Source of the DNA: Candidatus Nomurabacteria bacterium RIFCSPLOWO2_01_FULL_39_18
GTDB lineage: Bacteria; Patescibacteriota; Minisyncoccia; Phycocordibacterales; UBA9973
Length of the DNA: 64,000 bases
Assembly (NCBI GenBank): GCA_001787005.1
Contig: MFUV01000004.1
Span: 105,770 to 169,769, forward strand
Direction of reading: 5' to 3'
Within the stretch, counting starts at the first letter, position 1. Every line of letters starts with the position of its first letter. Shown piece after piece: positions 148 through 39,920 of the stretch. Under the pieces are notes generated by a model that was not told where the DNA came from, did not search any database, and was given only the letters and a program-made list of their open reading frames with translations. The position numbers were made by a program, and so were the translations under genes.

Positions 148-1377
148 ATGGATGAATTTAATTCAATTATTGAAAAGGAGCTGGCGACTGGAGTAAATCT
201 TTCTATTATTAATTTAATAGATCACCTGTTACGGCATGCCTGCAATATTCATGCATCCGATATTCATATAGACCCGCAGGATAAAGTGGTTCGTATTCGA
301 TTTCGTATCGACGGCGTGCTTGAAGATGCGCATACACTTCCTAAAGATATTCACGGAGAAATAATTTCAAGAATAAAAGTTCTCTCTGGTCTTCGCACTG
401 ATGAACATAATGCCGCGCAGGATGGGCGCTTTCGTAGTATTATTTCCGATTCGGAAAACTCTAGCAGTGTCGATGTGCGTGTTTCTATTGTGCCTACCTA
501 TCATGGAGAAAACGCTGTCCTTCGTCTTCTCTCGGACAACGCGGAAAATTTTACACTTGAAACACTTGGCTTTACGGGAACAGACCAAAGAAAGATTTTA
601 AATGCCGTTAAGAAACCGTCGGGTATGATTTTAGTTACTGGCCCGACAGGATCCGGGAAAACTACTACTCTTTATACATTGATTAAAATGTTAAATTCCA
701 AAGATATATCTATTGTTACCATCGAAGACCCGATCGAATATGCAGTGGAAGACGTGGAACAGATACAGGTTAATACTCGCACGGGGCTAACATTTGCCAA
801 TGGACTTCGTTCGATATTGCGCCAAGACCCGAATGTTATAATGGTGGGTGAAATTAGAGATGTGGAAACTGCTGGTATCGCAGTCAATACTGCTCTTACC
901 GGGCACTTACTCCTTTCCACGCTCCACACCAATGATGTCTCAACCACCCTTCCTAGACTGCTCGATATGAAGATAGAATCATTTCTCGTAGCCTCGACTG
1001 TATCTGTAGCTATCGGGCAGAGATTGGTACGAAAGATCTGCGAAAAGTGCAAAGAAAGAAAAACTGTAACTGATGAAGAATACAAATGGCTCTCTGAAAC
1101 TCTTTCAGATCAGACCCTGTTGCAGAATAGAAATTATTTTCAGGGTAAAGGATGTGAATCGTGTAACGGCAGTGGCTATCGAGGACGAATCGTTATTGCT
1201 GAAGTACTAGTCGCTGATGAAGAAATTCGAACAGCAATCTTGCGCAAAGCTTCGGCGAGCGAAATTAAGCAGATTGCAATGAAGAACGGGATGACAACGA
1301 TGCTCGTCGACGGTTTCAAAAAAGCAGTTCTAGGGCTTACTACCATAGAAGAGGTTCTTCGTGTTACGCACGAATAA
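148..1377 (+). CDS. pilB: type IV pilus / T2SS assembly ATPase, GspE/PilB family (short N-terminus)
   Basis: Walker A GPTGSGKTT, Asp and His boxes, C-terminal tetracysteine CxxC...CxxC; followed by pilC and pilins. Confidence 0.85.
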   Translation: MDEFNSIIEKELATGVNLSIINLIDHLLRHACNIHASDIHIDPQDKVVRIRFRIDGVLEDAHTLPKDIHGEIISRIKVLSGLRTDEHNAAQDGRFRSIISDSENSSSVDVRVSIVPTYHGENAVLRLLSDNAENFTLETLGFTGTDQRKILNAVKKPSGMILVTGPTGSGKTTTLYTLIKMLNSKDISIVTIEDPIEYAVEDVEQIQVNTRTGLTFANGLRSILRQDPNVIMVGEIRDVETAGIAVNTALTGHLLLSTLHTNDVSTTLPRLLDMKIESFLVASTVSVAIGQRLVRKICEKCKERKTVTDEEYKWLSETLSDQTLLQNRNYFQGKGCESCNGSGYRGRIVIAEVLVADEEIRTAILRKASASEIKQIAMKNGMTTMLVDGFKKAVLGLTTIEEVLRVTHE

Positions 1378-1380
1378 ATT

Positions 1381-2562
1381 ATGGCTAAAAAATATTTAGA
1401 TTTTTTTAAAAAAAAGAGTCCAGTACACCCGATACACAAGGTAGATACCACAAAGGATAAAAAGTCCCCCGCCAAGAAAAACAGATGGCAAGATATTAGC
1501 TTTTTTTCCTACTCAAAATTTTCAGTAAAGAAACAGACATTTTTCGCCAAACGGTTGTCTTTCCTGATCAAAGCCGGAGTGCCGATGCTTGAGAGCATGT
1601 ATGTAATTAAAAAACAAGCAAAATCAAAATCCGAGATAGGTGTTTTTGAAAAAATCATTGCTGATATCGCCAATGGGCAATCTCTGGCCACATCCTTGGG
1701 GCGTTTCAAGGGAGTATTTGGAAATTTTGCCCTAAATATCATAAAGGCCGGCGAATCTAGCGGAACTTTGATGCAAAACTTGAGTTACCTAGCTGATGAA
1801 TTAAAGAAGAAAGAATTGCTCCGTAAAAAAATAATGAGCGCCCTCCTCTACCCTATCATCATCACGATAGCGACTCTTGGCATCACCGGACTTCTGGTAA
1901 TTTATATTTTCCCTAAAATTCTTCCAATCTTTCAAAATTTGGGCGCGGAGCTTCCCCTTTCCACCAGAATTGTCATATTTGTCAGCGATGGAGTGCGCAA
2001 CTATGGTTTTTATATTCTTCTGGGATTGATCGTGTTCGTTATAATTTCTTATTTTTTAAATAAAAAGTTGCCACCGTTCAGATTCTTTCTTCACGGATTG
2101 ATTCTCCGACTTCCATTTACTGGAGCGGTTGCCAAACACTACAACCTTACGAACTCTACCCGAACATTGGGACTTCTACTTAAAAGTGGACTGTCTCTAA
2201 CGGAGTCGCTCCATGTTACAGCCGATACTACGGAGAATGTGCAGTACAAAAAAGCTTTTGAAAATATTTCTCGTGGAGTAATGAAAGGCAAGAGTATGTC
2301 TGACATCATGGGTCAGTCCCCCCACCTTTTCCCCGACATGTTGGAGCACATGCTCTCAATTGGAGAAAAAAGCGGCAACTTGTCAACTACGCTTATTTAC
2401 CTATCTGAATATTACGAGAACGAATTTGATGAACTGACAAAAAACCTTTCTACTTCTATCGAGCCAGTACTGATGATTGTAATGGGAATTTTGGTAGGGT
2501 TCATCGCAATCTCTGTCATCACTCCGATATATGGCATTACCCAACACCTCAATCCAAAATAA
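1381..2562 (+). CDS. pilC: type IV pilus platform protein PilC/GspF
   Basis: 393 aa polytopic membrane protein with two T2SSF-like repeats, immediately after pilB. Confidence 0.85.
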   Translation: MAKKYLDFFKKKSPVHPIHKVDTTKDKKSPAKKNRWQDISFFSYSKFSVKKQTFFAKRLSFLIKAGVPMLESMYVIKKQAKSKSEIGVFEKIIADIANGQSLATSLGRFKGVFGNFALNIIKAGESSGTLMQNLSYLADELKKKELLRKKIMSALLYPIIITIATLGITGLLVIYIFPKILPIFQNLGAELPLSTRIVIFVSDGVRNYGFYILLGLIVFVIISYFLNKKLPPFRFFLHGLILRLPFTGAVAKHYNLTNSTRTLGLLLKSGLSLTESLHVTADTTENVQYKKAFENISRGVMKGKSMSDIMGQSPHLFPDMLEHMLSIGEKSGNLSTTLIYLSEYYENEFDELTKNLSTSIEPVLMIVMGILVGFIAISVITPIYGITQHLNPK

Positions 2563-2567
2563 ATTTT

Positions 2568-3032
2568 ATGGCGACTTTGTATAAAACAAAACAAGGACTC
2601 ACTCTGATCGAAATACTAGTAGTGGTGGCAATAATCGGGATCATCATTAGTTTTGGGATGTCCATTGATTTGAATGCTTTTAGGCGCGACACTTTCCAAG
2701 CCGAAGAGTCTACTATCGTTGCTCTTTTAGGAAAGGCTCGTAGTCGAGCGATGAGCAATATGTTTGACACAGCTCATGGAGTGTGTTACATTGCACCTAA
2801 CTACATTGTTTTCCGTGGTACTTGTGTTGCTGGAATACCAACCAATGAACTCACTCCAGCCAATGCGGCCATTGCTACAGCTTCCGACTTCTCCAATCCC
2901 GCAAAATTTCCTTCCGTTGTTTTTAATAGACTTGCGGGAACAGTAACTGGTAGTACTATTGATATAACAGTAACTGATGGGCTCAAAACAGAACATATAA
3001 TAATAAACAATGAAGGCACAATCAACTGGTAA
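2568..3032 (+). CDS. prepilin-type (class III signal) pilin/pseudopilin
   Basis: N-terminus KQGLTLIEILVVVAIIGII matches the G|FTLIE prepilin cleavage/methylation motif. Confidence 0.7.
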   Translation: MATLYKTKQGLTLIEILVVVAIIGIIISFGMSIDLNAFRRDTFQAEESTIVALLGKARSRAMSNMFDTAHGVCYIAPNYIVFRGTCVAGIPTNELTPANAAIATASDFSNPAKFPSVVFNRLAGTVTGSTIDITVTDGLKTEHIIINNEGTINW

Positions 3033-4458
3033 CAAATACATAAAAGGTATGGCAACCCTGGAGCTACTCATAGCTTTCGTGATACTTATACTATGCACCA
3101 GCGCCGTCATTATGGTTGCCTTCGGCAATCAGTCTTTCGCGGTTGATTCAGAAACGAACAATGAAGCTATCCAAAAAGCGCAGAAAGCACTGGAAGATAC
3201 AAGAGCTCTCTCTAGGCAGGATTTTGATTTAGTAGTTTCTGACCCAAATCCCATCCAAGATGGTATCTATACTAAACAAATTATAGTTGATCCATTTGCA
3301 GCCACGGAATGCAGTAGGCAGATCGAGTCTAAAATCACATGGGATACTGATATGAATCAGCCTCAAAGTATCAACCTATTCAGTCGTGTTGGAGATATTC
3401 CGGAGGCATTAGACTTGGGGGGAGACTGCTCGGCATCGCCACCCGGACCAGGATTCACTGTAGGTGGAGGACTGAATATGGGAGGTGCTAAAACAAATGG
3501 TTTAGATGTGTTAAATAAAAAAGTTTTCATCGCTCTTCAAGATCCTCCCGGGTTAGCATATGTAGACGCCACAAACTATGCGGCTCCCGTTCAAATAATG
3601 AATAGTTACGATGTTGGTTCTGAAGTAAATGATGTAGATATTGCCCGTGATCTAGATACCGGAGAAATCTATGCATATGTTGCTAGAGAAACAAATACCA
3701 ATCAGCTTCAAATTATTGATGTGACAGATATTAATAACCCGATTTTTGTTAGAAATGTAGATTTACCAGAAGTTGGAGGTAGTTCCGAACCGGAAGGATA
3801 CCGAGTTTATTATTATAAAAATAGACTCTATATGACCACCAAAGAAACTGCAGGTCCAGAACTCCATATATTCGATGCTTCGGACCCAGTAACTTCTTTC
3901 CCAAAGTTTGGAATAAAAGAATTAAACAGAACAGTGAATGATCTTGTGGTAGTTGATCAAAATATTGGTGGCACGAATTATTCTGTCGCTTACATGGTGG
4001 CCGATTCAGATCTAAAAGAGATTGGAGTATTTGATGTTACTACTGCAGGAACTGCAAACGAAATGTTTTCACTGAATATGACAGGTGGTGCCGATGCTTA
4101 TTCTTTATTTTTCTCTTCTACATCCAAACTTTTGTATGTAGGACGACAGGCGAACGCTGGTCAAGAATTTTTTGCATATGATGCATCTAACTCCTTTTCC
4201 ACACTTATTGAAAGAGCAAAGAGAGAAGTTGGTGAACATCCTATCGGTCTTCGTATTGCTGGTGCCTATGCATACATGGTTACAAATGATAGTAATGAAG
4301 ATTTTCAAACTTACAATGCTGATCCAGCGACTGGTCTTTCACATATTCGTACTTATAATGCTTCAAATAAAGGCACAGGCATAGATTACGAAGATCAGTT
4401 TATTTATGAAACTATGGAACAAGGAAGCGAAACTCTTCAAATCTACTATGCTCCCTAG
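3010..4458 (+). CDS. large pilin-like protein with LVIVD-repeat (beta-propeller-like) C-terminal domain; putative pilus tip adhesin
   Basis: Leader MKAQSTGNKYIKG|MATLELLIAFVIL is prepilin-like; repeated YAYVA..LQIIDVTD / YSVAYMVADSDLKEIGVFDVT / AYAYMVTND motifs typical of LVIVD repeats. Confidence 0.6.
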   Translation: MKAQSTGNKYIKGMATLELLIAFVILILCTSAVIMVAFGNQSFAVDSETNNEAIQKAQKALEDTRALSRQDFDLVVSDPNPIQDGIYTKQIIVDPFAATECSRQIESKITWDTDMNQPQSINLFSRVGDIPEALDLGGDCSASPPGPGFTVGGGLNMGGAKTNGLDVLNKKVFIALQDPPGLAYVDATNYAAPVQIMNSYDVGSEVNDVDIARDLDTGEIYAYVARETNTNQLQIIDVTDINNPIFVRNVDLPEVGGSSEPEGYRVYYYKNRLYMTTKETAGPELHIFDASDPVTSFPKFGIKELNRTVNDLVVVDQNIGGTNYSVAYMVADSDLKEIGVFDVTTAGTANEMFSLNMTGGADAYSLFFSSTSKLLYVGRQANAGQEFFAYDASNSFSTLIERAKREVGEHPIGLRIAGAYAYMVTNDSNEDFQTYNADPATGLSHIRTYNASNKGTGIDYEDQFIYETMEQGSETLQIYYAP

Positions 4459-4930
4459 GTCATTAAATAAAGGTTTCACTCTTATAGAGGTCTTAATTTA
4501 CATAGTCCTTTTTTCCATTCTCATGGGAGGTGGTTTTATAACTGCATATCAAATGATTGATGGTTCCAGGAAATTGAGCGCGAAAGATACTTTACAAGAA
4601 GAGGGTAATTTTATTATGCGAAAAATCAGCTGGGCACTGACAAGTGTTGATCCTACGGTTGCCACAATACCCTCAGCAGGAACTTCCCCCAACCTTAGAG
4701 TGACGAAATACGACGGAAATCAAATTGACGTTCAACTTAATGGAACAAAAATAGAAATGAAGCAAAGTATTAATGGCAGCACTTTTCGCCCGATAACGAC
4801 TGACAATGTTTCTGTCAGTAGTCTGCAATTTACATATATAACACCAGTGGGATTAGAGCCCGCGGGTATTACGGCAGCAGCAGTTATAAATGGAATAAAC
4901 TTTACCATTACAAAATACATGAGAAAATAA
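4448..4930 (+). CDS. minor pilin-like protein (prepilin N-terminus)
   Basis: MLPRSLNKG|FTLIEVLIYIVLFSIL; ORF track starts at 4406 but the internal Met gives a canonical short leader. Confidence 0.6.
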   Translation: MLPRSLNKGFTLIEVLIYIVLFSILMGGGFITAYQMIDGSRKLSAKDTLQEEGNFIMRKISWALTSVDPTVATIPSAGTSPNLRVTKYDGNQIDVQLNGTKIEMKQSINGSTFRPITTDNVSVSSLQFTYITPVGLEPAGITAAAVINGINFTITKYMRK

Positions 4931-4931
4931 T

Positions 4932-5348
4932 GTGAAAATGATTATTCTAAATAAAAGAAGAAATAAAGGATTCATCGCTCTCATATCTGCCATTGTCATT
5001 TCGGTGATTTTGTTACTCATTGCAGCCAACTTAAGCTTGACTTCATTTTATGGCCGCTCGAATATTTTAGATTCAGAACTTAAAGAAAGAAGTTCTGCCT
5101 TGGCTGAAGCTTGCGCAGATACAGCAATTTTAAAATTAGCAAACAATAAAGATTATGTATTAGTTGCCGCTGATCACAGCATCTCCGTGGGAACGGGACA
5201 ATGTGATATTGTTTCTTATTCTTTTCCCCGAACTGGAAACATAACCATCATAACAAAAGCTAATTATAATAATACTTATTTTACTACTCTACAGATTGTA
5301 GTTAATTCAGCAGCGAACATGGCTGTTGTTTCTTGGGAAGAAATATAA
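4932..5348 (+). CDS. minor pilin-like protein
   Basis: RRNKG|FIALISAIVISVILLLIA hydrophobic pilin-like N-terminus (no Glu5). Confidence 0.5.
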   Translation: MKMIILNKRRNKGFIALISAIVISVILLLIAANLSLTSFYGRSNILDSELKERSSALAEACADTAILKLANNKDYVLVAADHSISVGTGQCDIVSYSFPRTGNITIITKANYNNTYFTTLQIVVNSAANMAVVSWEEI

Positions 5349-5457
5349 ACATCATATCAACAGTCCCCCCTTTACAAACTGGCTACTATGTAGTAGTCTA
5401 CGGGACATATTATTAATATAAATAAGTCGAATATTATAAGTAAGTTATTATAAATTT

Positions 5458-5916
5458 ATGAAAAAAATCGTTAAAAATAAGGGTTTTACGTTGATTGAGA
5501 TTTTGGTCGTTATCGCTATCATTGCCATTTTGGCAGCTATAGTGCTTGTTGCTATCAATCCTGCTAAGAGATTCCAGGATGCTAGAAACACACAACGAAG
5601 AGCAAATGTGGAATCTATCTTGAGCGCAGTTCAACAGAATATGGTTGACAATAAAGGAATCTTTACATGCGCTGGCCCAGGAGCAATTCCTGCTGTCGCA
5701 ACTGTCATGGAGGACACAGGGGGCTATGATATAGCAGAATGTATTAGTGCTTACCTTTTAGTTCTTCCGGTTGATCCACAAAATGGTTCATGGACCGACG
5801 ATGACAATTATGATACAGACTACACTATTAAACAGGATGCTACTACTAAACAAGTAACTATCAATGCTCCGTCTGCTCCCGGAGACGGTGGAGGAACAAT
5901 TTCTGTCACTCGCTAA
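5458..5916 (+). CDS. pilA: type IV major pilin (PilA-like)
   Basis: MKKIVKNKG|FTLIEILVVIAIIAILAAIVL canonical class III signal; followed by a strong terminator. Confidence 0.8.
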   Translation: MKKIVKNKGFTLIEILVVIAIIAILAAIVLVAINPAKRFQDARNTQRRANVESILSAVQQNMVDNKGIFTCAGPGAIPAVATVMEDTGGYDIAECISAYLLVLPVDPQNGSWTDDDNYDTDYTIKQDATTKQVTINAPSAPGDGGGTISVTR

Positions 5917-5935
5917 ATAAATCCGATCTAGTTGC

Positions 5936-5972
5936 AAAAATCCCTCACATGCACGCATGTGAGGGATTTTTG
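5936..5972 (+). terminator. rho-independent terminator after the pilin gene
   Basis: CCCTCACATG-CACG-CATGTGAGGG stem followed by ATTTTT. Confidence 0.8.
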
Positions 5973-6043: not shown

Positions 6044-6065
6044 CATCTACGCCATGGCGTAGATG
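6044..6065. repeat. palindrome A copy 1 (CATCTACGCCATGGCGTAGATG)
   Basis: Perfect self-complementary 20-22-mer; identical copies at 9979-9998 and 10393-10412. Confidence 0.9.
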
Positions 6066-6172: not shown

Positions 6173-6559
6173 CTAATTCTTACCAACTTTTCTGTTTTTA
6201 AACAATTGCACGATAAAATAAATTATAGAAATAAAAGAATATAGTCCAGCGAAAAACAATGTTAGATCTTTACCATCAAAGCTTACTATGGCTCCACTCC
6301 CACCTCCTGTTTCATATGCAAGCAGAATAGATATGAGAACATATACAAGGGTGATAAGTGAATATATTTTATACTTCTTGGTGTCAAGCACAAAAGCAAA
6401 AAGACTCACAATAAACAATACTACACCCCAGTAAAATAAATATCCAATAAATTGAGCTGTATTATAATCGAATGGACCTTTTGTATATGACGAATACCCC
6501 AAAAATATTCCCACTGATAATAAAAGTAACGAAAAACTTATTATTTTTTTCATATTCAT
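6173..6559 (-). CDS. small membrane protein (3-4 TM), hypothetical
   Basis: Hydrophobic segments; co-oriented immediately downstream of the large secreted protein. Confidence 0.45.
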   Translation of the reverse strand: MNMKKIISFSLLLLSVGIFLGYSSYTKGPFDYNTAQFIGYLFYWGVVLFIVSLFAFVLDTKKYKIYSLITLVYVLISILLAYETGGGSGAIVSFDGKDLTLFFAGLYSFISIIYFIVQLFKNRKVGKN

Positions 6560-6599: not shown

Positions 6600-9500
6600 C
6601 TATTTCAACCCTATTGTTACAGAATAAACATTTCCATCATCAAGTTTGGTAGAAATGGTATACCAATATCCGGCTGGTAATTTTTTCGTACTCCAGTTAT
6701 AGATATACTGCTGACTTTCAGGATCCCATTTGTATGTGTTGCCAGTTGTCGCAGTGTCATTATAAACAGATTCAGTGGCGGAAACATTCATTTTCGCACC
6801 CATTTGCGCACCGAGCCATATAGGCGCCGAATCTGCTTGCATAATTGTGCCATCATATTTTCTAAGTTGAAATTTAACAGGGACTGTACTGCCAGCTTTG
6901 AATATGCTTTTCTCTTGATCAATTTGATGTGCTGTATCGTTTATTGGTTGGAGAAAACCAGAGAAAACATATGGCATAGTAACGGTTCTACCTTCAGGGG
7001 CAATAATATCTGTCTCTGGGACCCCATCTCCATTTTGATCAAGTTGTAATAATAAAGCTCCCGCAGAATTCAGTGTAACTTCTGCGATTGTCTCCGGGGT
7101 CACTGGAATATCTTTAAAGATTGTTGTCGTCGTTGTTCCATTGGTTAGAACCTTTTCTGATTCATATGTGAATATACCGGTATCTATACCTTTTATTTCT
7201 ATACTCCCCATTTCGTCTTCGGGGAGGTTTAAGTACTTACCCTCACCGAATTCCATATATGATGAATTCGTAATATTTTCTTCTACATAACAAAAGTCAA
7301 AATCTGGCGGGCAAATTTTACCAGTGTGATTAGGTACTGTAGCATAATCATAAGCATCGAGAGTAACCGGTGAGTGAATTGAAATACGAAAACGATTTTC
7401 TGTGTCTATTGGTTCGTTGTCTTTTACCACATTGTCTAATGCAACATCTCCAGCTTCAATTATTGATTTAATAAAATTATTCAGTGAATCGACTTCTAAA
7501 ATATCTTTATGTTCTCTGTTGAGTCTCAATATAGTATTATAATTTTTAAAATCTACCCAATATTTTTCCGCATTTCCAAGAAAATTCATATATTGCGCAC
7601 TAGGCACAACTACAGTTCCATCCCCATCCGAGGTAAAACGAGGTCTTTCGTCTAATGCATACGGAGGACATGTTACAGCTCCGGGTGGGCAAGACACTGA
7701 TTTTGGGTAGTACTCCATACTTGCGACAGTTTCGAGTCCCCAGCCAGCCACTTCAATCACTCGCATGTCTTCAGGCGGAGTCCATGCGTCTATATTGTCG
7801 TGCAAACTTTCTGCTTGAGAAAATAAATCTTGTGAGAGATTGATAGGCAAATTTGTTTCACCAATCAATGGATTGGTTCGACCTTCATTTCCAAAAAGAA
7901 AATCTTTGTACTCGTCATAGGAATCAATTACGCCACCAAAAGCTTGAACCATTTGTGTTGTAATTCCCGAAGGAATTGCATTATCCACGAATGTCGCAGG
8001 TGAAGCATCGACATGATTTATATATTCTTTACTTGGTAAAAGTCCATAAGCCCCGAGCATATTTCGTCCAAGTTCACGAGCGTGAATTTCGTCCATTAGC
8101 CAGCCACTCAAAATTCTCTGGTCATATCCATGGAGTATTGCTGGTACTGCCTTTGCTGTGCCAATTTCTGGCACGGCAACTAAAATTAATACATCTATAT
8201 TATCAATTAGATTATTTATTCCCGCAACCTTGTCGTCTTGTAATTTTTTCAAAAGCGTTTTAGCTAAAAGTCCACCGTTGCTGTGAGCAACAATGGTAAC
8301 TTTGCCGTTTTTTGATTCCGAGTCGACCAATGATTGTAGAGTATCGATTAACGAGACTGTTTCATTTTGATATTTTGTTCCATTGCTCACAATGTCTTCA
8401 ATGTCTTGTCGCCAGTCATAGGCATATTCTTTCCATTTTTTTATTTTTTGATCAGTAACCAATTGATCCATAGTTTCAGAAAAACTTTTATAGATATTTT
8501 GTCCCAAAGCCCCTGCTGGAAATGGCGTGTTTGTCTCTTTTATGATATCTCTTGTATAAATATCTAGATTCATGCTTGTTCCATCAGGATTCAAATACAA
8601 ATCTTCCACATCGCTGTTTGTATTTGGTTCCCATAACTGGTCTTCATCTCCATTATCTTGCTCGTACAATCTAGAACCCATTATTCCCGGCAAAAAGAGA
8701 ACATTGGAGAAACAGGTGGTGCAAGTCGGAACTTTCCAGCCATCTGGTATTTTCCAAGGGAAATTGTCGGTTACATTGCCAAAGCTAATCGCAGTATCAC
8801 AAATAAAATCATTATTTATATCATTACATCCCTCCTCTGGAGTATCGTGGTTGCGATAATAGTTACCACCTATTGGCATTGGTTGATAAATGAGATTTGC
8901 AGAATTACTAAAGGAAGAAATATTCGGAATGGACATGAAATTATTATTGTAAACTTTATTATTGTTTACATTTGAACTCATTGCGACACCTATATTAGTT
9001 ACAGAAATTGTGTTGTTGCGCACCGTTGTTCTTTGTGTATTCTGAGTTAAAAGTATTCCTGTGCTAATAATGTTTACACCAGGAATATATCCAGCTGTAT
9101 TGGTTACCACATTGCCATCAATGAGATTATCAAAATCATTAAAGGAAAGAAAAAATCCTAAACCGAAGCCACGTGTTTCGTTGTTTAAGAATCGGCTATT
9201 TGTTGTTTGAAACACACCAATCCCACTATCAAAACCTTCAATAATTAAATTTTTTACTGTAATGTTTTTTCTAAAAGCAATATTAATTCCACTTCCAACC
9301 CCAAATCCATTATTCCATTTCACTATTTTTCCATTACCGTCGAGCGTAATATTGTCATTCACAATTTGTATTACTTCGAACACATCCTGTGTCATGGTGC
9401 AAGTAAGGGTGACTTGGTTCCATATGCCAAATGTAGAGCAATCTCCGCCCGTAGTATCATTACGAATGGTTTTTGTACTAGGTTGAGTTTTAATGAAAAT

Positions 9501-9902
9501 TAAATGAGGTTCGTAGCCATTTAAAGTAAAAGTTGTATTTGGGGATTCATTTGCAGAACGTTGCACCACATTTTCCAATGAATCAATATAAAAATAAAGG
9601 TCTTGGTTTGGAAGATTTTCCAATAAAATAGTTATTTCTTCTTTGCCTGCTATTGGAATAAATACCACAGATGATCCTAGCGATATTTCTTTTATAATTT
9701 CAGTTTCGGGGCTAGAAGAAATAGTGATATCTAAAAAGTCTTGTATAAATGGAAGATTGGCTGTTTCCGTTGTCGAGGCAGACTCATTTAGGAGAATAGT
9801 ATCTTCAGCATTTACTGTATGCCCACCCCAAAAAGACACCAAAATGAGGACCACCACCCCAAATTTCAATGCATTTTTCAGTACAGTCATAAATATCTCC
9901 AT
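6600..9902 (-). CDS. large secreted multidomain protein: signal peptide + right-handed beta-helix repeats + LCAT-like lipase domain + C-terminal domains
   Basis: Signal peptide MTVLKNALKFGVVVLILVSFWGGHTVNA; NITLDGNGKIV / NITVKNLIIEG type beta-helix repeats; FLPGIMGSRLY and VTIVAHSNGGLL (GxSxG-type) motifs as in the LCAT family. ORF-track start 9980 overlaps a palindrome and was rejected in favour of MEIFM/MTVLK. Confidence 0.65.
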   Translation of the reverse strand: MEIFMTVLKNALKFGVVVLILVSFWGGHTVNAEDTILLNESASTTETANLPFIQDFLDITISSSPETEIIKEISLGSSVVFIPIAGKEEITILLENLPNQDLYFYIDSLENVVQRSANESPNTTFTLNGYEPHLIFIKTQPSTKTIRNDTTGGDCSTFGIWNQVTLTCTMTQDVFEVIQIVNDNITLDGNGKIVKWNNGFGVGSGINIAFRKNITVKNLIIEGFDSGIGVFQTTNSRFLNNETRGFGLGFFLSFNDFDNLIDGNVVTNTAGYIPGVNIISTGILLTQNTQRTTVRNNTISVTNIGVAMSSNVNNNKVYNNNFMSIPNISSFSNSANLIYQPMPIGGNYYRNHDTPEEGCNDINNDFICDTAISFGNVTDNFPWKIPDGWKVPTCTTCFSNVLFLPGIMGSRLYEQDNGDEDQLWEPNTNSDVEDLYLNPDGTSMNLDIYTRDIIKETNTPFPAGALGQNIYKSFSETMDQLVTDQKIKKWKEYAYDWRQDIEDIVSNGTKYQNETVSLIDTLQSLVDSESKNGKVTIVAHSNGGLLAKTLLKKLQDDKVAGINNLIDNIDVLILVAVPEIGTAKAVPAILHGYDQRILSGWLMDEIHARELGRNMLGAYGLLPSKEYINHVDASPATFVDNAIPSGITTQMVQAFGGVIDSYDEYKDFLFGNEGRTNPLIGETNLPINLSQDLFSQAESLHDNIDAWTPPEDMRVIEVAGWGLETVASMEYYPKSVSCPPGAVTCPPYALDERPRFTSDGDGTVVVPSAQYMNFLGNAEKYWVDFKNYNTILRLNREHKDILEVDSLNNFIKSIIEAGDVALDNVVKDNEPIDTENRFRISIHSPVTLDAYDYATVPNHTGKICPPDFDFCYVEENITNSSYMEFGEGKYLNLPEDEMGSIEIKGIDTGIFTYESEKVLTNGTTTTTIFKDIPVTPETIAEVTLNSAGALLLQLDQNGDGVPETDIIAPEGRTVTMPYVFSGFLQPINDTAHQIDQEKSIFKAGSTVPVKFQLRKYDGTIMQADSAPIWLGAQMGAKMNVSATESVYNDTATTGNTYKWDPESQQYIYNWSTKKLPAGYWYTISTKLDDGNVYSVTIGLK

Positions 9903-9978
9903 ATTAGCAGTATTTCCTAAAACGGCAACTGGGGGCCAGTCTGTAGTAGAGTTAGGGTTAATAAAATCTATAATTACC

Positions 9979-9998
9979 ATCTACGCCATGGCGTAGAT
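9979..9998. repeat. palindrome A copy 2 (ATCTACGCCATGGCGTAGAT)
   Basis: Perfect palindrome exactly between the stop of the 9998-10366 gene and the promoter region of the lipase gene. Confidence 0.9.
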
Positions 9999-10366
9999 TA
10001 GTTTGTATATGATTTAGCTAACTTAAATGTTTTAAATTCTTTCTGCAGGCCAATTCTTTTCAGATAAGCAAGAAAATCCACCGGCAGTGGCGAAGGCCCA
10101 ACCCAGACACTTTTCTGAATCATGACAAAATCAAAATTCTTAAGCTGTCGACGAAACCAATCTCGCTCTTTTTTCCTCGTATACGGAACATCGTACATTA
10201 AAAGTAGGTTCTTTGGCGCATCTTTTTTAAAATCAGAAACAAAAGAACGAAGATACAGCCGTTTGTTTTTTTTAGTATTTTTAAATTTTTTCGAATCACT
10301 GAAACTTGGCAAACCTAGAATATTCACCGGCACACCTTTGTAATAAAATTTCTTTCTTCTCGTCAT
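9998..10366 (-). CDS. small basic protein with Cas2/PaaX_C-like domain (paralog of 29178-29717 C-terminal half)
   Basis: LLLMYDVPYTRKKERDWFRRQLKNFDFVMIQKSVWVGP aligns with WRLVMYDLPIRFKKARDAFRFKLKDLGFFQFQKSAWIYP of the 179-aa paralog; the beta-YDV...R.Q.SV pattern resembles Cas2/VapD. Confidence 0.45.
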   Translation of the reverse strand: MTRRKKFYYKGVPVNILGLPSFSDSKKFKNTKKNKRLYLRSFVSDFKKDAPKNLLLMYDVPYTRKKERDWFRRQLKNFDFVMIQKSVWVGPSPLPVDFLAYLKRIGLQKEFKTFKLAKSYTN

Positions 10367-10392: not shown

Positions 10393-10412
10393 ATCTACGC
10401 CATGGCGTAGAT
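10393..10412. repeat. palindrome A copy 3 in the divergent region between the Cas2-like gene and recG
   Basis: Identical 20-mer ATCTACGCCATGGCGTAGAT. Confidence 0.9.
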
Positions 10413-10446: not shown

Positions 10447-12666
10447 GTGGAACTTAGCGATAGACTTGAAATAAAATTCCGCTTAGATGTAAACCAAAAA
10501 AGGGCTTTAAATAGGCTCAAACTTTTCTCTATTGCCGACCTTTTGTACCACTTTCCTGTCAGATATTCTCATATTAGTGAAATAAAACCCATTAGCCAGT
10601 TAGTGGCGGGAGAATTTGCGACGGTCTATGGAAGATTTTGGAGTCCGGACATAAAAAGAGGATACAAAAGCAAAGTTTTGCGAGCAGAAGGAGAAGTGAT
10701 AGACGAAACTGGAAAAATAAAAGTTGTCTGGTTTAATCAAGCTTACATCGCGAAAATGATACATTCTGGACAATTCGTAGAACTAACCGGAAAAGTGATG
10801 GAAAGTAAAAGGGGCAAATATCTAGCAAACCCTGAATTCAAAAAGATTGATTTACTGCCGATTGATACACATGATTCTCTATTTAATTTTGAAAAGAAAA
10901 AACAGAGCGAAGTCTTTGGTTTTCCTGTTTATGCAGAGACCCGTGGCATAACTTCTAAATGGTTCTACCATGCAATAGAGAAAATATTGCGAGAAAAAAC
11001 GTTGGATAGAATAGGAGACTACATTCCAGAGGACATTCTTAAAAAATACAACCTCCCCAGCCTGAGGACCGCGCTCATTTGGATTCACAAGCCGAAAAAT
11101 TCGCGAGACGCTGAAAGCGCCAAGAAAAGATTCGCTTTCGAAGAAGTTTTTTGCATTCAGCTGGAGCGCCAGCATGACAAGTTTGAATACAAAAAAAATA
11201 AATCTTTTCAGATTATTCCAGATGAGAAAAACGTTAAGAAATTTTTAGAACGTTTTCCTTTCGAACCAACAAATTCCCAAAAGAAATCTATCGAGGTAGT
11301 CTTGGACGATATGGCGAAGAGTTTCCCCATGTCCCGCCTCCTAGAGGGTGATGTCGGATCTGGAAAGACAGCCGTTGCGGCCACAGCAAGCTATGTGGCA
11401 GTACAACAACGTCCCAATGGACAGACTTTTGGCAACTTACAAGTCGCTTACATGGCACCCACGGAGATCCTGGCGGCACAACACTTCGAATCTTTCATAG
11501 AATATTTTAAATACCTACCGATTAACATCGGGCTCATCACCGGATCAGGTTGCAGAAAATTCCCTTCTAAAGTTAACCCCCTCGGATGGACGAATATATC
11601 CCGCGCGCAGCTTTTGAAATGGGTAGCAAATGGAGAAATTCCCATATTGATAGGCACGCATGCTTTGATCCAAAAAACGGTTAAATTTAAAAATCTGGCG
11701 CTATGCGTGGTGGATGAACAGCACAGATTCGGTACAGCGCAGAGAAGAAAGTTGGTCAGGAAGGATGCAAAAGGAAATATGAGCGCTCCACACTTGCTCT
11801 CGATGACAGCTACCCCTATCCCCCGCACCTTGGCGCTGACCATCTATGGCGACCTAGACCTCTCTCTCCTCGATGAAATGCCTGCTGGCAGAAAGAAAAT
11901 AATAACAGAGATAATCACGCTGAAGGAGCGCGAAGAAACTTATGAAAAAGTCAGACAAGAATTAAAAGCTGGCAGACAGCTCTATGTGATCTGCCCGAGA
12001 ATTTTCGAACCGGATGAAGAGTACCCCTACCCGACCTCCCCCTATATAGGGGGAGGTGCCAAAGGCAGAGGGGGTATAGAAATGAAAGCCGTTACCACTG
12101 AAGCAAAACGACTCAAAAAAGAAGTTTTCAGAGAATACGAAATAGGTGTACTGCACAGCAAGATGAGCAAGGAAAAAAAAGAAAAAGTGATGCAGGAATT
12201 TACGGAAGGCAAAATAAATATTCTCTGCGCCACATCAGTGGTGGAAGTAGGAGTAAATGTGCCGAATGCCACCCTTATAATAATAGAAGGGGCGGAACGA
12301 TTCGGCTTAGCCCAGCTTCACCAGCTTCGCGGACGAGTGCTGAGGAGCACGCATCAAGCGTATTGTTACATCTTCGCTGACGCCAAAAGCGACAAAACTA
12401 TCGCCAGGTTAAAAGCTCTTAAAACCGCCCAAAACGGCTTCGAGCTCGCAGAGCTAGACCTCTCGCTCCGCGGTGCCGGAGAGCTCGGAGGAACGAAACA
12501 ATGGGGCATCACCGACCTCGGCATGGAAGCAATTAAAAATATAAAAATGGTTGAAGCCGCCCGCACCGAAGCTGTCCGCTTGATAGGAGAAGACCCAGAA
12601 CTCACTAAATATCCCCTACTGAAACAGAAAGTCCATCAAAAAGCTGGGGAATTTCATTTTGAATAA
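10447..12666 (+). CDS. recG: ATP-dependent DNA helicase RecG (GTG start)
   Basis: Wedge/OB N-terminus, DVGSGKT Walker A, DEQHRFG, helicase C motifs; TATAAT 9 nt upstream of the GTG. Confidence 0.9.
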   Translation: MELSDRLEIKFRLDVNQKRALNRLKLFSIADLLYHFPVRYSHISEIKPISQLVAGEFATVYGRFWSPDIKRGYKSKVLRAEGEVIDETGKIKVVWFNQAYIAKMIHSGQFVELTGKVMESKRGKYLANPEFKKIDLLPIDTHDSLFNFEKKKQSEVFGFPVYAETRGITSKWFYHAIEKILREKTLDRIGDYIPEDILKKYNLPSLRTALIWIHKPKNSRDAESAKKRFAFEEVFCIQLERQHDKFEYKKNKSFQIIPDEKNVKKFLERFPFEPTNSQKKSIEVVLDDMAKSFPMSRLLEGDVGSGKTAVAATASYVAVQQRPNGQTFGNLQVAYMAPTEILAAQHFESFIEYFKYLPINIGLITGSGCRKFPSKVNPLGWTNISRAQLLKWVANGEIPILIGTHALIQKTVKFKNLALCVVDEQHRFGTAQRRKLVRKDAKGNMSAPHLLSMTATPIPRTLALTIYGDLDLSLLDEMPAGRKKIITEIITLKEREETYEKVRQELKAGRQLYVICPRIFEPDEEYPYPTSPYIGGGAKGRGGIEMKAVTTEAKRLKKEVFREYEIGVLHSKMSKEKKEKVMQEFTEGKINILCATSVVEVGVNVPNATLIIIEGAERFGLAQLHQLRGRVLRSTHQAYCYIFADAKSDKTIARLKALKTAQNGFELAELDLSLRGAGELGGTKQWGITDLGMEAIKNIKMVEAARTEAVRLIGEDPELTKYPLLKQKVHQKAGEFHFE
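12022..12077. repeat. nested palindromic element inserted in-frame in recG
   Basis: TACCCCTACCCGACCTCCCCCTATATAGGGGGAGG...AGGGGGTA; encodes EYPYPTSPYIGGGAKGRGGIE; near-identical copy at 39869-39920. Confidence 0.85.
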
Positions 12667-13423: not shown

Positions 13424-13428
13424 ATTTG

Positions 13429-13502
13429 TCCGTCCTCTTGGATTCGAACCAAGGACCCCAGAGGTATAAGCTCTGTGCTCTAACCAACTGAGCTAAGGAC
13501 GG
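13429..13502 (-). tRNA. tRNA-Ile (anticodon UAU)
   Basis: Manual fold: acceptor CCGTCCT/AGGACGG, D-arm GCTCAGTTGGTTAGAGC, anticodon stem CAGAG/CTCTG with loop CTTATAC, T-arm CTTGGTTCGAATCCAAG, discriminator A; CCA not encoded. Confidence 0.8.
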
Positions 13503-21112: not shown

Positions 21113-21240
21113 CCCGTTAGAAGTAGGAAATCTTTAGATTTCCGTAGTTAAATTTATTAATAACAACTATAAGAAACTGGTCCATTATAACATTTCTGTA
21201 ACTTTAATTAACTAAATGACTTCTAACGGGATCCATATCT
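21104..21240. repeat. MITE-like element with terminal inverted repeats ATCCCGTTAGAAGT ... ACTTCTAACGGGAT
   Basis: 14-bp perfect inverted repeats about 95 bp apart; second copy at 40568-40670; the left arm contains the ATG of the downstream gene. Confidence 0.65.
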
Positions 21241-21505
21241 ATAAAAGTAAGAAAAAATCCGCCCGAAGCGGAATCCTTCTTAGGACTATTTCCAATGTAT
21301 TACCGTAGCTCAAAGCTAGGTGGGTGTCAGACAAGCTTGACCAAGGTCAAACCCGATCGAGACTCCCTAAAATTAGTGTTCTAGGTAATAATTGGAAATA
21401 ACCCTACTTTCAGTATAGCAAAATTATGGCGAGGAGCAACTGGACAGAAAGAATTTTTTGTTTCTGAATTAATTATAGAATTTTTGTCGTGATCCTGCTT
21501 AAGAA

Positions 21506-21541
21506 TTGTACATATATACGCTATAGCGTATATATGTACAA
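21506..21541. repeat. 36-bp perfect palindrome TTGTACATATATACGCTATAGCGTATATATGTACAA
   Basis: Self-complementary; directly abuts the stop codon of the last CYTH gene. Confidence 0.85.
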
Positions 21542-22084
21542 TTAAAAACGCATATTAAACCAGTCTAATTCGTATTCTTTTTTAATTAAAACTCTCTCCC
21601 CTTCACCAATACTTTTGTGATCTTCCAATCCGAGTATTTTTATTGCTTCTTGCACATGTTCATGACTTTTCCCTTCAATTTCCAGATAAGCGGGCATCCC
21701 TGGGTACTGATCCAGGTCAAATTGCCAATCCTTTAGGAGGAAAGATGCACGATCTTTTTCTTGATGGGCATAGTGCTCTATCCCGACATTTTCAAAAAGC
21801 TTCCCGGCAAGGATAGCATCACCAACACTTATATTTATCTCGTCAGAATGTCTGGTATTGCCTGTTATTTCTGGTAATGACTTCCAACTTATTTCAGACT
21901 TCCCACCCGTACTAGTTCGAATTCTTAAATACCATGGATCGTCGCCTTCATGGGTCAAACCTTTGGGTCCGTACCAATCGATAACAAGTCTTGTGTTCTG
22001 TATCTCTTTCGCGCCAAGTGCTTTTAACTTTTCTTTTACTTCTTCCTTATCTACATTTAAAACTTTCGTTTCAATTTCGTGCAT
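21542..22084 (-). CDS. CYTH-domain protein (triphosphate tunnel metalloenzyme / CyaB-like)
   Basis: N-terminal HEIETKVL (ExExK), LRIR and C-terminal YLEIE motifs. Confidence 0.7.
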   Translation of the reverse strand: MHEIETKVLNVDKEEVKEKLKALGAKEIQNTRLVIDWYGPKGLTHEGDDPWYLRIRTSTGGKSEISWKSLPEITGNTRHSDEINISVGDAILAGKLFENVGIEHYAHQEKDRASFLLKDWQFDLDQYPGMPAYLEIEGKSHEHVQEAIKILGLEDHKSIGEGERVLIKKEYELDWFNMRF

Positions 22085-24257: not shown

Positions 24258-27023
24258 TTATTCCATCGTCTGATACCTCGCCATAATCTCCGCCTCCACT
24301 TCTTCTCGGTCGCGGCCGTATTTCACATAAGAAAGTTCTTTCAGAGAATCCACGATGTCGGGATTGCCTTTTTCTGGGGCTAGAGTTATCAAATTAAAAG
24401 GTTTAGTTGGTTGACCTTTTATTAGCATGCTCATGTAGGCATTGTAGTTGTCGAGCTTGGTGATGTCGGCCGCGGTAAATTGGGGCTTGAATTTCGGCTC
24501 GAGAAATGTCGCGTCCTCAGTGCCGACACGGAAGACGGCCATGGAACCGACATTGCCGAAGACTGCATTTTTAATATTGTCTTCGAGCTGAGTGATGTAT
24601 TGATGCGCAATATTAAGCGAGAGTCTATATTTGCGAGCTTCAGATAAAATAGAAGCGATGGAGTCAGTCGTAACATTCTGAAACTCGTCAATGTAGAGAT
24701 AGAAATCATTCATCGGCTTGCCAAACATGTCTACTCGCGAGAGCGCCGCCATCTGGATTTTGCCGACTAAGACAAGCCCGATCAGATTCGCATTGATATC
24801 CCCGAGTCTACCCTTCGAGAGGTTCACTAGAAGAATTTTCTTCTCATCCATAATCTTGCGGAAATTAAAAACAGAGTTCTGCTGAAGCACCACTGGGCGC
24901 ATAATGTCATTGGAAATAAAATTATCAAATTTTGAAGAAATATACGGCACGAAGTTCGCCAAAGATTGGTCTCCTGTTGTTTGCTCGGCGGAAATCCAGA
25001 ATTGTTTGATTATTGGATTCTTGCATCTCTCGAGCTTCATGTCGCGGAATTCTTTGTCAGCCAAAACACGGGTAATCTCGAGTAAGGTTGAGCCGGACTC
25101 GGGATTTTCCATCACTAAAAAGGCGCTATTTCTGAAATATTGTTCAAACATCGCCCCGCCTCCGACCTTCATGTCGAAGAGTTTATTGAAAATTCCCATC
25201 AGTTCGTTCACTACGAAAGTTTTCTGCTCTGGATATTTCGGATCATACTCGAGCATATTGAGCCCCATTGGGCGGGCAGTATAAGCCGGATCGAAATAGA
25301 TCACGTCATCGATACGCTCTTTCGGAATCCTGGACAAGATTGTCTGGATGTCTGTACCGTGCGGGTCTATATAACAGCAACCATCGCCAGCCTTTATATC
25401 CTGCGTAATCATATTGAGCATGATGTTGGTCTTTCCTGTACCCGTCTGACCGATGACATAGAAATGCCTCATGCGATCTTCGCGTGCCAGATGAATTATC
25501 GTATCGCGCCCCCGATAACTGTTAACTCCTAAAATCACACCCTCTTGTCCCATTTCGAGTGGCGCCGGCGCAATGCCAGCTTTGGCTTCTTTAAGCTGTG
25601 GCTGACTCCCGATACCAACCGGGAAATGAAAGACTGAAGAGAGTTCTTTCAAATTCATCGGCAAAATCTTATCATGGGAAAAAGAGCGGAAAGAAAAGTC
25701 TTGAAAAAGTTTTTTCAAATCATTTCCTTGCATTTCTTCAAAAAAGAAAGAATTGCTAGCCGCTTCAGAAAATTGGTGAAAGGAAGATTCTATCTCTTTC
25801 AAAATCGCCCCTGCGCGTTCTTTCGTCTCGGCAGAGGCTATCACTCGAATATTTGCCTTCATGATAGTGCTTTTTATTTTGTTGCCTATTTTCTCAGCTG
25901 CACCTTCGTCTACTGCCCGTCTGCCCTTCATATATTTTTCTTTTTTTTCTTCCGGCTCTTTCTTCACTCCAAAAACAAGTTCTTTGCCCGCTTTCAGCAG
26001 GGCATGATTGAATTTGTAGAAATTATCAGCCGCGTGTTTGACGGATACGCCATCCTTTACATCATCTAGGATCTTATGGAATTCATTTATGAATTTGTCT
26101 CCAGCCGGCGCGATAACAAGCTGAATCGCCGCGCCTTCTCCCACTGTTTGCAGTTTGGAAAAAACATTAAGTATTGGATTCATCGGATCGTGTTCGATAT
26201 TGTCATAGGTCTTGATCGGCATCACTGCTCGCTCGGTAAAGCTCGCATAAGCCCCGACTGACCCGCCAGAAACATTGAAAATATTATAGTCGTCGGTGAC
26301 CTCTCGAATTTTCGCATCATGATAAAATGCTAAAATTTGTTTTTCAAATAGCGTTAGATGTTTGTTGGGGATGGCGGCATAGACCACCACTTCATCGCTC
26401 TCTCCCGAAAGCGCCACTTCCAGGGTGAAATAATTTTCTTTTTCATTATTTTTACCGATGGAGATAGAATGCATGCCGGCATAAAATTGCTCCATCGCGC
26501 CGATGAATTCTTTGAACCCTTTTGATTTGTCAGCCTCATCGGTAGGTGGCGGAAGCGTTATTTCAAACAGGGTCATATTGAGCGATTTGTACAGTGGTGA
26601 GTCTTCTTTAAAATCGGACACAACTTGGCCGGTCTTTAAATATTGAATTAAGAGTCGGTGGAAATCGTCTTCAATATGCGGACTCCCCATCGCTTCCATC
26701 ACCGAGAGCGCATTTTTAATTCCTTTGGTAATAACAACGCCCAAAAGCTCTTCCATCACCACGTCGTGGGCTTCGGGCTTGAGCGCAAGCACGATACCCT
26801 CTTTGTCCTTCTTGTCTAGGAGAATACTTTCATATAAAGCCTGCCCTGCTGGCACATCCCTATACGCTTCTACAACTTCGCCGGCCGCATTTTCTTTAGC
26901 ATTTTCAAAATGTCCTATTTTAATTAATTCTTGCTCTCTTTTAGCAACATGCGCCCGCAAGTAGTCAAGCTCCTCTTCTGGAGTCTTAAACTTCGGCATT
27001 TCCTTAAAGAAGGATGGTTCCAT
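24258..27023 (-). CDS. FtsK/HerA-superfamily P-loop ATPase with VirD4/TraG-like (AAA_10/TraG-D_C-like) C-terminal half and long unique N-terminal region
   Basis: Walker A GQTGTGKTN, Walker B LYIDEFQ, SEARKYRLSLNIAHQ; no N-terminal TM helices. Confidence 0.5.
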   Translation of the reverse strand: MEPSFFKEMPKFKTPEEELDYLRAHVAKREQELIKIGHFENAKENAAGEVVEAYRDVPAGQALYESILLDKKDKEGIVLALKPEAHDVVMEELLGVVITKGIKNALSVMEAMGSPHIEDDFHRLLIQYLKTGQVVSDFKEDSPLYKSLNMTLFEITLPPPTDEADKSKGFKEFIGAMEQFYAGMHSISIGKNNEKENYFTLEVALSGESDEVVVYAAIPNKHLTLFEKQILAFYHDAKIREVTDDYNIFNVSGGSVGAYASFTERAVMPIKTYDNIEHDPMNPILNVFSKLQTVGEGAAIQLVIAPAGDKFINEFHKILDDVKDGVSVKHAADNFYKFNHALLKAGKELVFGVKKEPEEKKEKYMKGRRAVDEGAAEKIGNKIKSTIMKANIRVIASAETKERAGAILKEIESSFHQFSEAASNSFFFEEMQGNDLKKLFQDFSFRSFSHDKILPMNLKELSSVFHFPVGIGSQPQLKEAKAGIAPAPLEMGQEGVILGVNSYRGRDTIIHLAREDRMRHFYVIGQTGTGKTNIMLNMITQDIKAGDGCCYIDPHGTDIQTILSRIPKERIDDVIYFDPAYTARPMGLNMLEYDPKYPEQKTFVVNELMGIFNKLFDMKVGGGAMFEQYFRNSAFLVMENPESGSTLLEITRVLADKEFRDMKLERCKNPIIKQFWISAEQTTGDQSLANFVPYISSKFDNFISNDIMRPVVLQQNSVFNFRKIMDEKKILLVNLSKGRLGDINANLIGLVLVGKIQMAALSRVDMFGKPMNDFYLYIDEFQNVTTDSIASILSEARKYRLSLNIAHQYITQLEDNIKNAVFGNVGSMAVFRVGTEDATFLEPKFKPQFTAADITKLDNYNAYMSMLIKGQPTKPFNLITLAPEKGNPDIVDSLKELSYVKYGRDREEVEAEIMARYQTME

Positions 27024-38589: not shown

Positions 38590-38739
38590 GCGAAACCTCC
38601 TTTCACTTAGGAGCTTAAAAGAAATATATATATAAAGCAAGTTCTGGGTGTGGAGAAATACAACCCCTCCAAACCTCCCCTTATCAGGGGAGGTACAAAA
38701 AATCCCCCTGACAAGGGGGACTTAGGGGGTTATTTTTTT

Positions 38740-39868: not shown

Positions 39869-39920
39869 TACCCCCTCCTTTCTCCTCCCCCTATATAGGG
39901 GGAGGCTGGGTAGGGGTATT
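39869..39920. repeat. nested palindromic element, intergenic copy (rplD stop / rplW RBS)
   Basis: TACCCCTACCCAGCCTCCCCCTATATAGGGGGAGG..AGGGGGTA (minus sense); supplies AAAGGAGG upstream of the rplW ATG; matches the recG insert. Confidence 0.85.

Follow-up and report, generated by a model that had tools for sequence, protein, structure and literature searches.

Enzymes related to lecithin:cholesterol acyltransferase (LCAT) and lysosomal phospholipase A2 (LPLA2 or PLA2G15) are defined by an alpha/beta-hydrolase core with accessory membrane-binding and cap domains (PMC6277198). Among bacterial systems, the effector Tle4 (TplE) of the Pseudomonas aeruginosa type VI secretion system (T6SS; PDB 4r1d) is a lipase directed against the membrane of another cell, with the small gene of its protective partner Tli4 adjacent, and secreted lipases, such as BlEst2 (6wpx) and the family I enzymes with their Lif foldases, are exported proteins of alpha/beta-hydrolase fold with a co-encoded helper gene. 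A lipase pair that resembles all of these in part was found in a 64,000-nucleotide stretch of contig MFUV01000004.1 from Candidatus Nomurabacteria bacterium RIFCSPLOWO2_01_FULL_39_18 (the window hereafter; G+C content about 40%), where the gene of a predicted exported LCAT/LPLA2-like hydrolase is followed by that of a small membrane protein with four hydrophobic helices.

The lipase has in common with LPLA2 and LCAT a GxSxG nucleophile, an acid motif of the DGD(G)TV type and a histidine about 37 residues later. It differs from them in being bacterial and 16-18% identical, in having about 56 extra residues between the serine and the aspartate, in its additional beta-sandwich, variable N-terminal modules and PxKF or helical C-terminus, and in the coupling of its gene to that of the four-helix membrane protein. 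The closest functional analogy to the lipase pair is Tle4-Tli4; in contrast to Tle4, the lipase has a Sec signal and no T6SS genes are among its annotated neighbours, and whereas Tli4 is a soluble periplasmic protein, the partner encoded here is a polytopic membrane protein. Unlike the helpers of family I lipases, it is not a Lif-type foldase.

The predicted exported hydrolase and its family

The lipase is encoded by a single long open reading frame (6600 to 9980, minus strand; 1126 amino acids), to which all residue numbers refer. The features of the lipase pair, all on the minus strand, are as follows.

6600 to 9890: gene of the exported multi-domain LCAT/LPLA2-like hydrolase, 1096 amino acids from Met31
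9807 to 9890: predicted Sec signal peptide MTVLKNALKFGVVVLILVSFWGGHTVNA, with n-h-c layout and an AxA-like end (VNA), cleavage expected before ED
8847 to 9368: NosD-type right-handed beta-helix module (Pfam PF05048), in the variable N-terminal region
7431 to 8723: serine hydrolase domain of LCAT/LPLA2 fold
8280 to 8282: codon of Ser567, within AHSNGG
7620 to 7622: codon of Asp787, within DGDGTV
7509 to 7511: codon of His824, within REHKDIL
6978 to 7394: family-specific beta-sandwich, always found after the hydrolase, with a cysteine pair at 890 and 897
6603 to 6962: C-terminal PxKF domain (NCBIfam NF038114)
6173 to 6559: gene of a 128-amino-acid membrane protein with four hydrophobic helices, downstream of the lipase

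The assignment of the lipase core to the serine hydrolases of LCAT/lysosomal phospholipase A2 fold is well supported. When the protein was modelled by AlphaFold with an alignment of its homologues, the predicted local distance difference test score (pLDDT) of the core exceeded 90, with the variable ends poorly modelled, and comparison of the model with PDB structures by Foldseek unambiguously matched LPLA2 (6e-14), Tle4 (4.5e-11) and LCAT (2.5e-10), and more weakly the polyhydroxybutyrate depolymerase PhaZ7 and feruloyl esterases. Sequence and profile searches of the PDB matched the nucleophile elbow alone, and therefore the relationship to LPLA2 and LCAT required comparison of folds. From the length of the structural alignment, the accessory membrane-binding and cap domains seem to be held in common as well. 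An earlier note on this DNA, made from the letters alone, had recognized an LCAT-family domain by the motifs FLPGIMGSRL and AHSNGG; both motifs are present, and Pfam PF02450 (LCAT) matches residues 517-809 with E = 3.1e-12 (46.9 bits against a cut-off of 21).

The Asp and His partners of the GxSxG serine, on which the earlier note had made its lipase reading depend, are present in the sequence as Asp787 and His824. In an alignment of the lipase with 108 homologues (109 sequences), the conserved core corresponds to residues 420-987 approximately, and H-S-x-G-G (Ser567), G-D (Asp787) and His824 are invariant. The model places Ser567 between a strand and a helix, and Asp787 and His824 after later strands. 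At the sequence level, the Ser567-Asp787-His824 triad is intact. Two cysteine pairs are conserved, one in 92-96% of the sequences and the other (890/897) in 82-85%, suggesting that they form extracytoplasmic disulfides.

The gene described by the earlier note as extending from 6600 to 9902 is real, but position 9902 corresponds to Met27, and Met31 at 9890 is the likelier start codon, because it has GGAG six nucleotides upstream (GGAG-N6-ATG, 9900-9888) and the closest homologues begin at the equivalent position. The gene is therefore probably 6600 to 9890; the first ATG of the open reading frame sits within one of the palindromes described below. The signal peptide was predicted from hydropathy and the AxA-like end, and a comparable N-terminal segment is found in 107 of 116 homologues. 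There is no further transmembrane or hydrophobic segment in the lipase, and no lipobox.

The modules on either side of the core differ in how well they can be described. For the right-handed beta-helix, noted earlier as pectate-lyase-like, the evidence is a match of residues 205-378 to PF05048 (NosD; E = 2e-7, 30.9 bits against a cut-off of 23.6) together with the annotation of homologues as PF13229 or PF05048, while the corresponding region of the structural model has low confidence (pLDDT about 30-55). The additional C-terminal domains that had been proposed are present. The beta-sandwich is modelled confidently as strands and is conserved with the core in all listed homologues, with no match to a Pfam family; the PxKF domain matches NF038114 over the full length of the model (residues 1007-1126, E = 2.8e-29, 101.8 bits against a cut-off of 35), and literature searches found nothing about it.

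An exhaustive search yielded 2,695 representative clusters, 1,575 of them with E of 1e-30 or lower, and the best 150 of the 2,695 all cover both the hydrolase and the beta-sandwich that follows it. At least 256 homologues of the lipase are among the matches listed, PF02450 is present in nearly all of 120 listed homologues, and relatives are encoded by at least 462 species-level genomes, some of which possess two copies. Wherever sequence titles are informative, they name Parcubacteria lineages (Nomurabacteria, Kaiserbacteria, Moranbacteria, Taylorbacteria, Giovannonibacteria, Liptonbacteria, Paceibacterota and Minisyncoccia). Many homologues are 60-70% identical in the core but have different N-termini, in which a beta-helix/NosD module (PF13229/PF05048), DUF5018, LVIVD, a HecA-like module or no module at all may be found; the beta-helix is missing from most members of the family. 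At the C-terminus, a minority possess PxKF and most possess a helical segment. Adhesin-like targeting has this pattern, in which the catalytic core stays constant and putatively surface-binding modules are swapped. The family is a bacterial branch of the LCAT/LPLA2 fold, uncharacterised and spread throughout the lineage, that has an extra domain and a membrane partner of its own, and literature searches for LCAT-like enzymes in Patescibacteria or Parcubacteria found nothing.

The membrane partner and the proposed function of the pair

The small membrane protein that the earlier note had seen after the lipase gene proved to be a conserved partner. Its homologue lies directly downstream of the lipase in 63 of the 71 lipase loci that have enough downstream sequence, with a gap of mostly 2-8 nucleotides, and in several loci it is tandemly duplicated (two copies). 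In the window, the gap is about 40 nucleotides with no terminator inside. The partner has basic N- and C-termini and conserved residues in two predicted outward loops, which in most homologues contain a cysteine pair. Its sequence matches with 100% identity a hypothetical protein of Candidatus Nomurabacteria bacterium RIFCSPLOWO2_01_FULL_39_18. Judged by gene order, the lipase and its partner are a conserved two-gene unit across Parcubacteria/Paceibacteria. Immunity and a role as docking or acceptor subunit are both conceivable for the partner: its tandem duplication and the analogy with Tle4 speak for immunity, and docking is favoured by how strongly the enzyme is conserved and by the partner being polytopic.

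The reading in which moderate confidence may be placed is that of a Sec-exported lipase of LCAT/LPLA2 fold, partnered in the membrane and aimed at the membrane phospholipids of a host or neighbouring cell. Such an enzyme would work at the lipid-water interface, as do LPLA2, LCAT and Tle4, taking an acyl chain from a phospholipid onto Ser567 and passing it to water (as a phospholipase A) or to an acceptor (as a transacylase). Such a cell would be its likeliest target, with weakening of the host envelope, and the products, lysolipids and fatty acids, could be used by a lipid-auxotrophic symbiont. The partner would either shield the membrane of the producer (immunity) or dock the enzyme at the cell surface, and the N-terminal modules, here the beta-helix, would be exchangeable parts for binding surfaces. 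A membrane-active role against a host cell, as the earlier note had supposed, is plausible. It fits the variable adhesin-like N-termini, the resemblance to Tle4 and the lipid dependence of the lineage: Patescibacteria lack lipid synthesis, and according to a 2024 review no mechanism of lipid uptake or breakdown has been identified in them (PMC11665869), while field lipidomics found lysolipids to be enriched in cells of the candidate phyla radiation (CPR; PMC7242380).

Several observations weigh against this reading. The substrate class is taken from the fold alone, at 16-18% identity to LPLA2; the core, with 60-70% identity between lineages, is conserved to a degree that is unusual for a toxin in an arms race; the partner is annotated as hypothetical and belongs to no Pfam or NCBIfam family; pili and other host-contact genes are not consistently linked to lipase loci; and the lipase has no known anchoring signal, so that its attachment to the cell surface is speculative.

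The same facts can be arranged differently. The two genes would be purely a toxin and its immunity protein if an antibacterial phospholipase killed competitors or hosts, the four-helix protein conferred immunity and nutrition played no part. The structure of Tle4, the second-best structural match, indeed includes its immunity protein, the partner gene sits immediately beside the lipase gene and is at times in tandem, as is often the case for immunity genes, and the targeting modules at the N-terminus vary. However, the identity of the core across lineages is unlike that of fast-evolving toxins, the polytopic partner has no similarity to immunity proteins of the Tli4 type, and export by a Sec signal is not contact-dependent secretion, so this arrangement is unlikely. 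A bolder and still more tentative proposal is that the pair is the missing lipid-acquisition device of Parcubacteria/Paceibacteria, in which a surface LCAT-like transacylase would move host acyl chains or lysolipids to the membrane of the symbiont, with the partner as acceptor, docking or uptake subunit and the N-terminal modules setting host specificity.

The enzyme might instead be directed at the envelope of the producer, remodelling its membrane or wall (by forming lysolipids, or by acyl transfer to envelope polymers or proteins) with the four-helix protein as a subunit that presents the substrate or accepts the acyl group. LCAT-family enzymes include both transacylases and hydrolases (PMC6277198), tight pairing with a membrane protein would suit a two-subunit envelope enzyme, high conservation of the core would fit a housekeeping role, and CPR membranes are rich in lysolipids (PMC7242380); but swapped adhesin-like modules (beta-helix, DUF5018, LVIVD, HecA-like) are hard to explain for such an enzyme, some genomes have two copies, and a self-directed role is doubtful, behind the two preceding proposals. 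Very unlikely is a non-lipid esterase that cleaves esters in polysaccharide, cutin-like or polyester material with the beta-helix as a carbohydrate-binding or lyase module: beta-helices of the NosD or pectate-lyase type usually bind glycans, and PhaZ7 and feruloyl esterases are among the weaker structural matches, but most members of the family have no beta-helix to serve in this way.

The Cas2-like gene and its palindromes

Two described systems resemble the DNA upstream of the lipase. REPtrons, which consist of repetitive extragenic palindromic (REP) sequences with a REP-associated tyrosine transposase (RAYT) gene, likewise have a small gene with one and the same short palindrome on either side and further copies scattered through the genome, and PaaX regulators possess a Cas2-like middle domain similar to the 122-amino-acid protein encoded next to the lipase. 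The features concerned are as follows.

9998 to 10366, minus strand: gene of a 122-amino-acid Cas2-like (PaaX_M) protein, upstream of the lipase on the same strand
10393 to 10412: palindrome copy 1, 14 nucleotides upstream of TGcTATAAT and 26 nucleotides upstream of the Cas2-like ATG
9979 to 9998: palindrome copy 2, abutting the Cas2-like stop codon and 88 nucleotides upstream of the lipase ATG (9890)
6045 to 6064: palindrome copy 3, solo, about 110 nucleotides past the partner gene, with a purine-rich tract after it

The earlier note had described the lipase operon as bracketed by palindromes and under apparent dedicated regulation. The palindromes are real, the 20-nucleotide sequence ATCTACGCCATGGCGTAGAT having exactly three copies in 64 kb where none is expected, but the regulation is not upheld: the two upstream copies are those that flank the Cas2-like gene, the palindrome occurs widely, next to or inside many unrelated housekeeping genes, and the product of the neighbouring gene has no winged-helix segment.

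The order palindrome, Cas2-like gene, palindrome was found in ten of ten metagenome contigs with two copies, which are 407-467 nucleotides apart, and three of three Cas2-like genes chosen by protein alone have the perfect variant ATCTACGCTATAGCGTAGAT on both sides. The latter three are located in a conserved SecDF-LemA-HtpX-(gene)-GatCA neighbourhood, and the usual location of the Cas2-like gene is between htpX and gatC. Bracketed Cas2-like genes (loci L085, L096, L100, L103, L104, L107, L130, L163, L183 and L201-L203) had, in every case examined, one palindrome about 26 nucleotides before the ATG and the other at the stop codon. Because the flanks are the same wherever the gene sits, copies 1 and 2 belong to the Cas2-like gene. 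As far as can be judged from the genomes examined, its placement next to the lipase looks lineage-specific; in the others it is elsewhere or non-adjacent. The Cas2-like gene is a neighbour of the lipase system rather than a demonstrated component.

The Cas2-like protein matches PF20803 (1e-12) and PF09827 (1e-6) and belongs to a family with over 1,834 clusters of homologues about 120 amino acids long, strongly conserved over the whole 120 residues, the best 120 clusters being at least 70% identical. A Cas2/VapD-like fold is weakly supported, the matches of its model to Cas2, VapD and PaaX being weak. It was rejected as a PaaX-family regulator: only PaaX_M and Cas2 are matched, and alignment shows that the winged-helix segment of its 187-amino-acid relatives is missing. 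It was also rejected as a CRISPR Cas2: the window contains no repeat array, cas1 is absent from the neighbouring genes, and in other genomes the gene is syntenic between htpX and gatC. A PaaX-like protein of about 187 amino acids that does have the winged-helix segment is encoded beside the lipase operon in nine of 82 lipase loci (L037, L042, L048, L075, L043, L062, L007, L018 and L041), directly after the partner gene in Moranbacteria loci; in the six of these loci that were inspected, one or both sides of its gene carry long palindromes whose sequence is lineage-specific, those in Moranbacteria being perfect palindromes that differ in sequence from the 20-mer.

The least probable of the readings considered takes the palindromes as operators for a dedicated regulator of the lipase operon. 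In its favour, the three exact copies in the window all lie around the lipase cluster, one of them about 50 nucleotides upstream of a weak promoter-like sequence (TTGCCG-16-TAATAT) before the lipase, and a copy precedes the lipase in L080 and L105 and follows the partner gene in L074 and L156, the last two occupying the position equivalent to copy 3. However, the Cas2-like gene has copies 1 and 2 as its invariant flanks even where it is located between htpX and gatC; of the metagenome contigs in which the exact 20-mer was found, at least 118 in number, 25 carry a Cas2-like gene and just two a lipase; many copies are inside other genes; and 80 of 82 lipase loci have no palindrome, the exact 20-mer being found in two distant ones, L080 (upstream of the lipase) and L074 (after the partner gene).

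In about 45 contigs the 20-mer is within a housekeeping gene, such as those of dihydrofolate reductase (DHFR), RsmI, TsaD, UvrC, MnmA, ComEC and ComFC-like and RNase J-like proteins, and it is always in-frame as LRHGVD or STPWRR, the two stop-free frames (examples among loci L083-L200 are L102 8903, L122 3257, L101 6679, L084 4463, L116 2034 and L196 302). In-frame copies in housekeeping genes imply that selection acts on the palindrome as DNA and not on the protein. Comparisons meant to tell insertion from substitution as the origin of the coding copies gave mixed results: RNase J-like and ComFC-like proteins differ in length by 3-5 amino acids, a reverse-transcriptase-like protein does not, and the DHFR of the window is 6 amino acids longer at the site than the DHFRs that bear the palindrome. 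Variants of the 20-mer retain the two-fold symmetry, and the genes near it are diverse. In L074 (3191-5418), the palindrome occurs at each of two adjacent sigma-70-family genes, exactly 20 nucleotides upstream of a promoter-like pair (TTGACA ... TATGAA).

As RNA, the palindrome would fold into a hairpin of -9.8 kcal/mol. A fixed promoter element was rejected, there being no conserved -35 sequence at a fixed offset and the flanks being just AT-rich and depleted of C; a DNA-uptake signal is unlikely at about three copies per 64 kb here and about four copies in 876 kb of lipase loci. A REPtron was rejected because the flanked gene matches PaaX_M/Cas2 and not the Y1_Tnp family of Y1/HUH transposases; REPtrons also differ in that the copy number is low here and copies are in-frame inside housekeeping genes. 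Literature searches for the palindrome sequence found nothing. It may be a binding site of the Cas2-like protein, an RNA-stabilising hairpin or a mobile palindrome. From its distribution, the flanking palindrome is a separate, widespread element tied to the Cas2-like gene, not a dedicated switch of the lipase.

Other palindromes were observed in the window, which contains 20 perfect palindromes whose arms are 9 nucleotides or longer, compared with about one in shuffled sequence. The DHFR gene (55803 to 56372) contains a split copy of the 20-mer (ATCTACGgaATGG ... CGTAGAT) at 56068-56105, in which an 18-nucleotide perfect GC-rich palindrome, CCTGCCTGCGCAGGCAGG, is nested in-frame; near-copies of this 18-mer are located at 32868, 35398 and 52621 (none expected), two of them inside open reading frames. 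A second family, ACCTCCCC(C)TATATAGGGGGAGGT, is found at 12034-12057, where it is inside recG, in-frame and encodes TSPYIGGG, and at 38673-38694 and 39884-39905. The intergenic gap at 21113-21543 (430 nucleotides) contains a 40-nucleotide perfect palindrome that includes the symmetric 20-mer variant ATATACGCTATAGCGTATAT, a promoter-like TTGCTC-17-TATACT and a terminator-like hairpin. These elements suggest a small RNA of about 150 nucleotides, and no Rfam family was found in the intergenic region at 21.1-21.5 kb.

Neighbouring genes and significance

The remaining annotated features near the lipase pair are as follows.

148 to 5916, plus strand: type IV pilus operon encoding the PilB ATPase, the PilC platform protein, three or more prepilins that have N-methylation motifs, and a 482-amino-acid pilin-like protein
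5935 to 5972: bidirectional terminator-like hairpin, between the convergent pilin gene and lipase operon
10447 to 12666, plus strand: recG
13428 to 13502: tRNA-Ile with anticodon TAT (UAU)

The pilus operon appears complete and is convergent with the lipase operon. Pilus genes were found near the lipase operon only in the window and in one to three of the 82 lipase loci, and a linkage of lipase and pilus genes was rejected because the adjacency is not kept in relatives. The reading of AUA codons by a tRNA with anticodon UAU is uncommon in bacteria, most of which use a lysidine-modified CAU tRNA. A 921-amino-acid protein encoded at 24258-27023 has a weak match to the C-terminal domain of TraG/TraD and may be a coupling-protein-like ATPase.

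The analysis of the palindromes corrects their misreading as local regulation and exposes a separate, unexplained conserved DNA element. The lipase pair is a concrete, clonable candidate with which the question of lipid acquisition by CPR bacteria becomes experimentally approachable. If the role of the lipase should prove to be only antagonistic, the family would still be a lineage-wide, Sec-exported analogue of the Tle-type phospholipase effectors.

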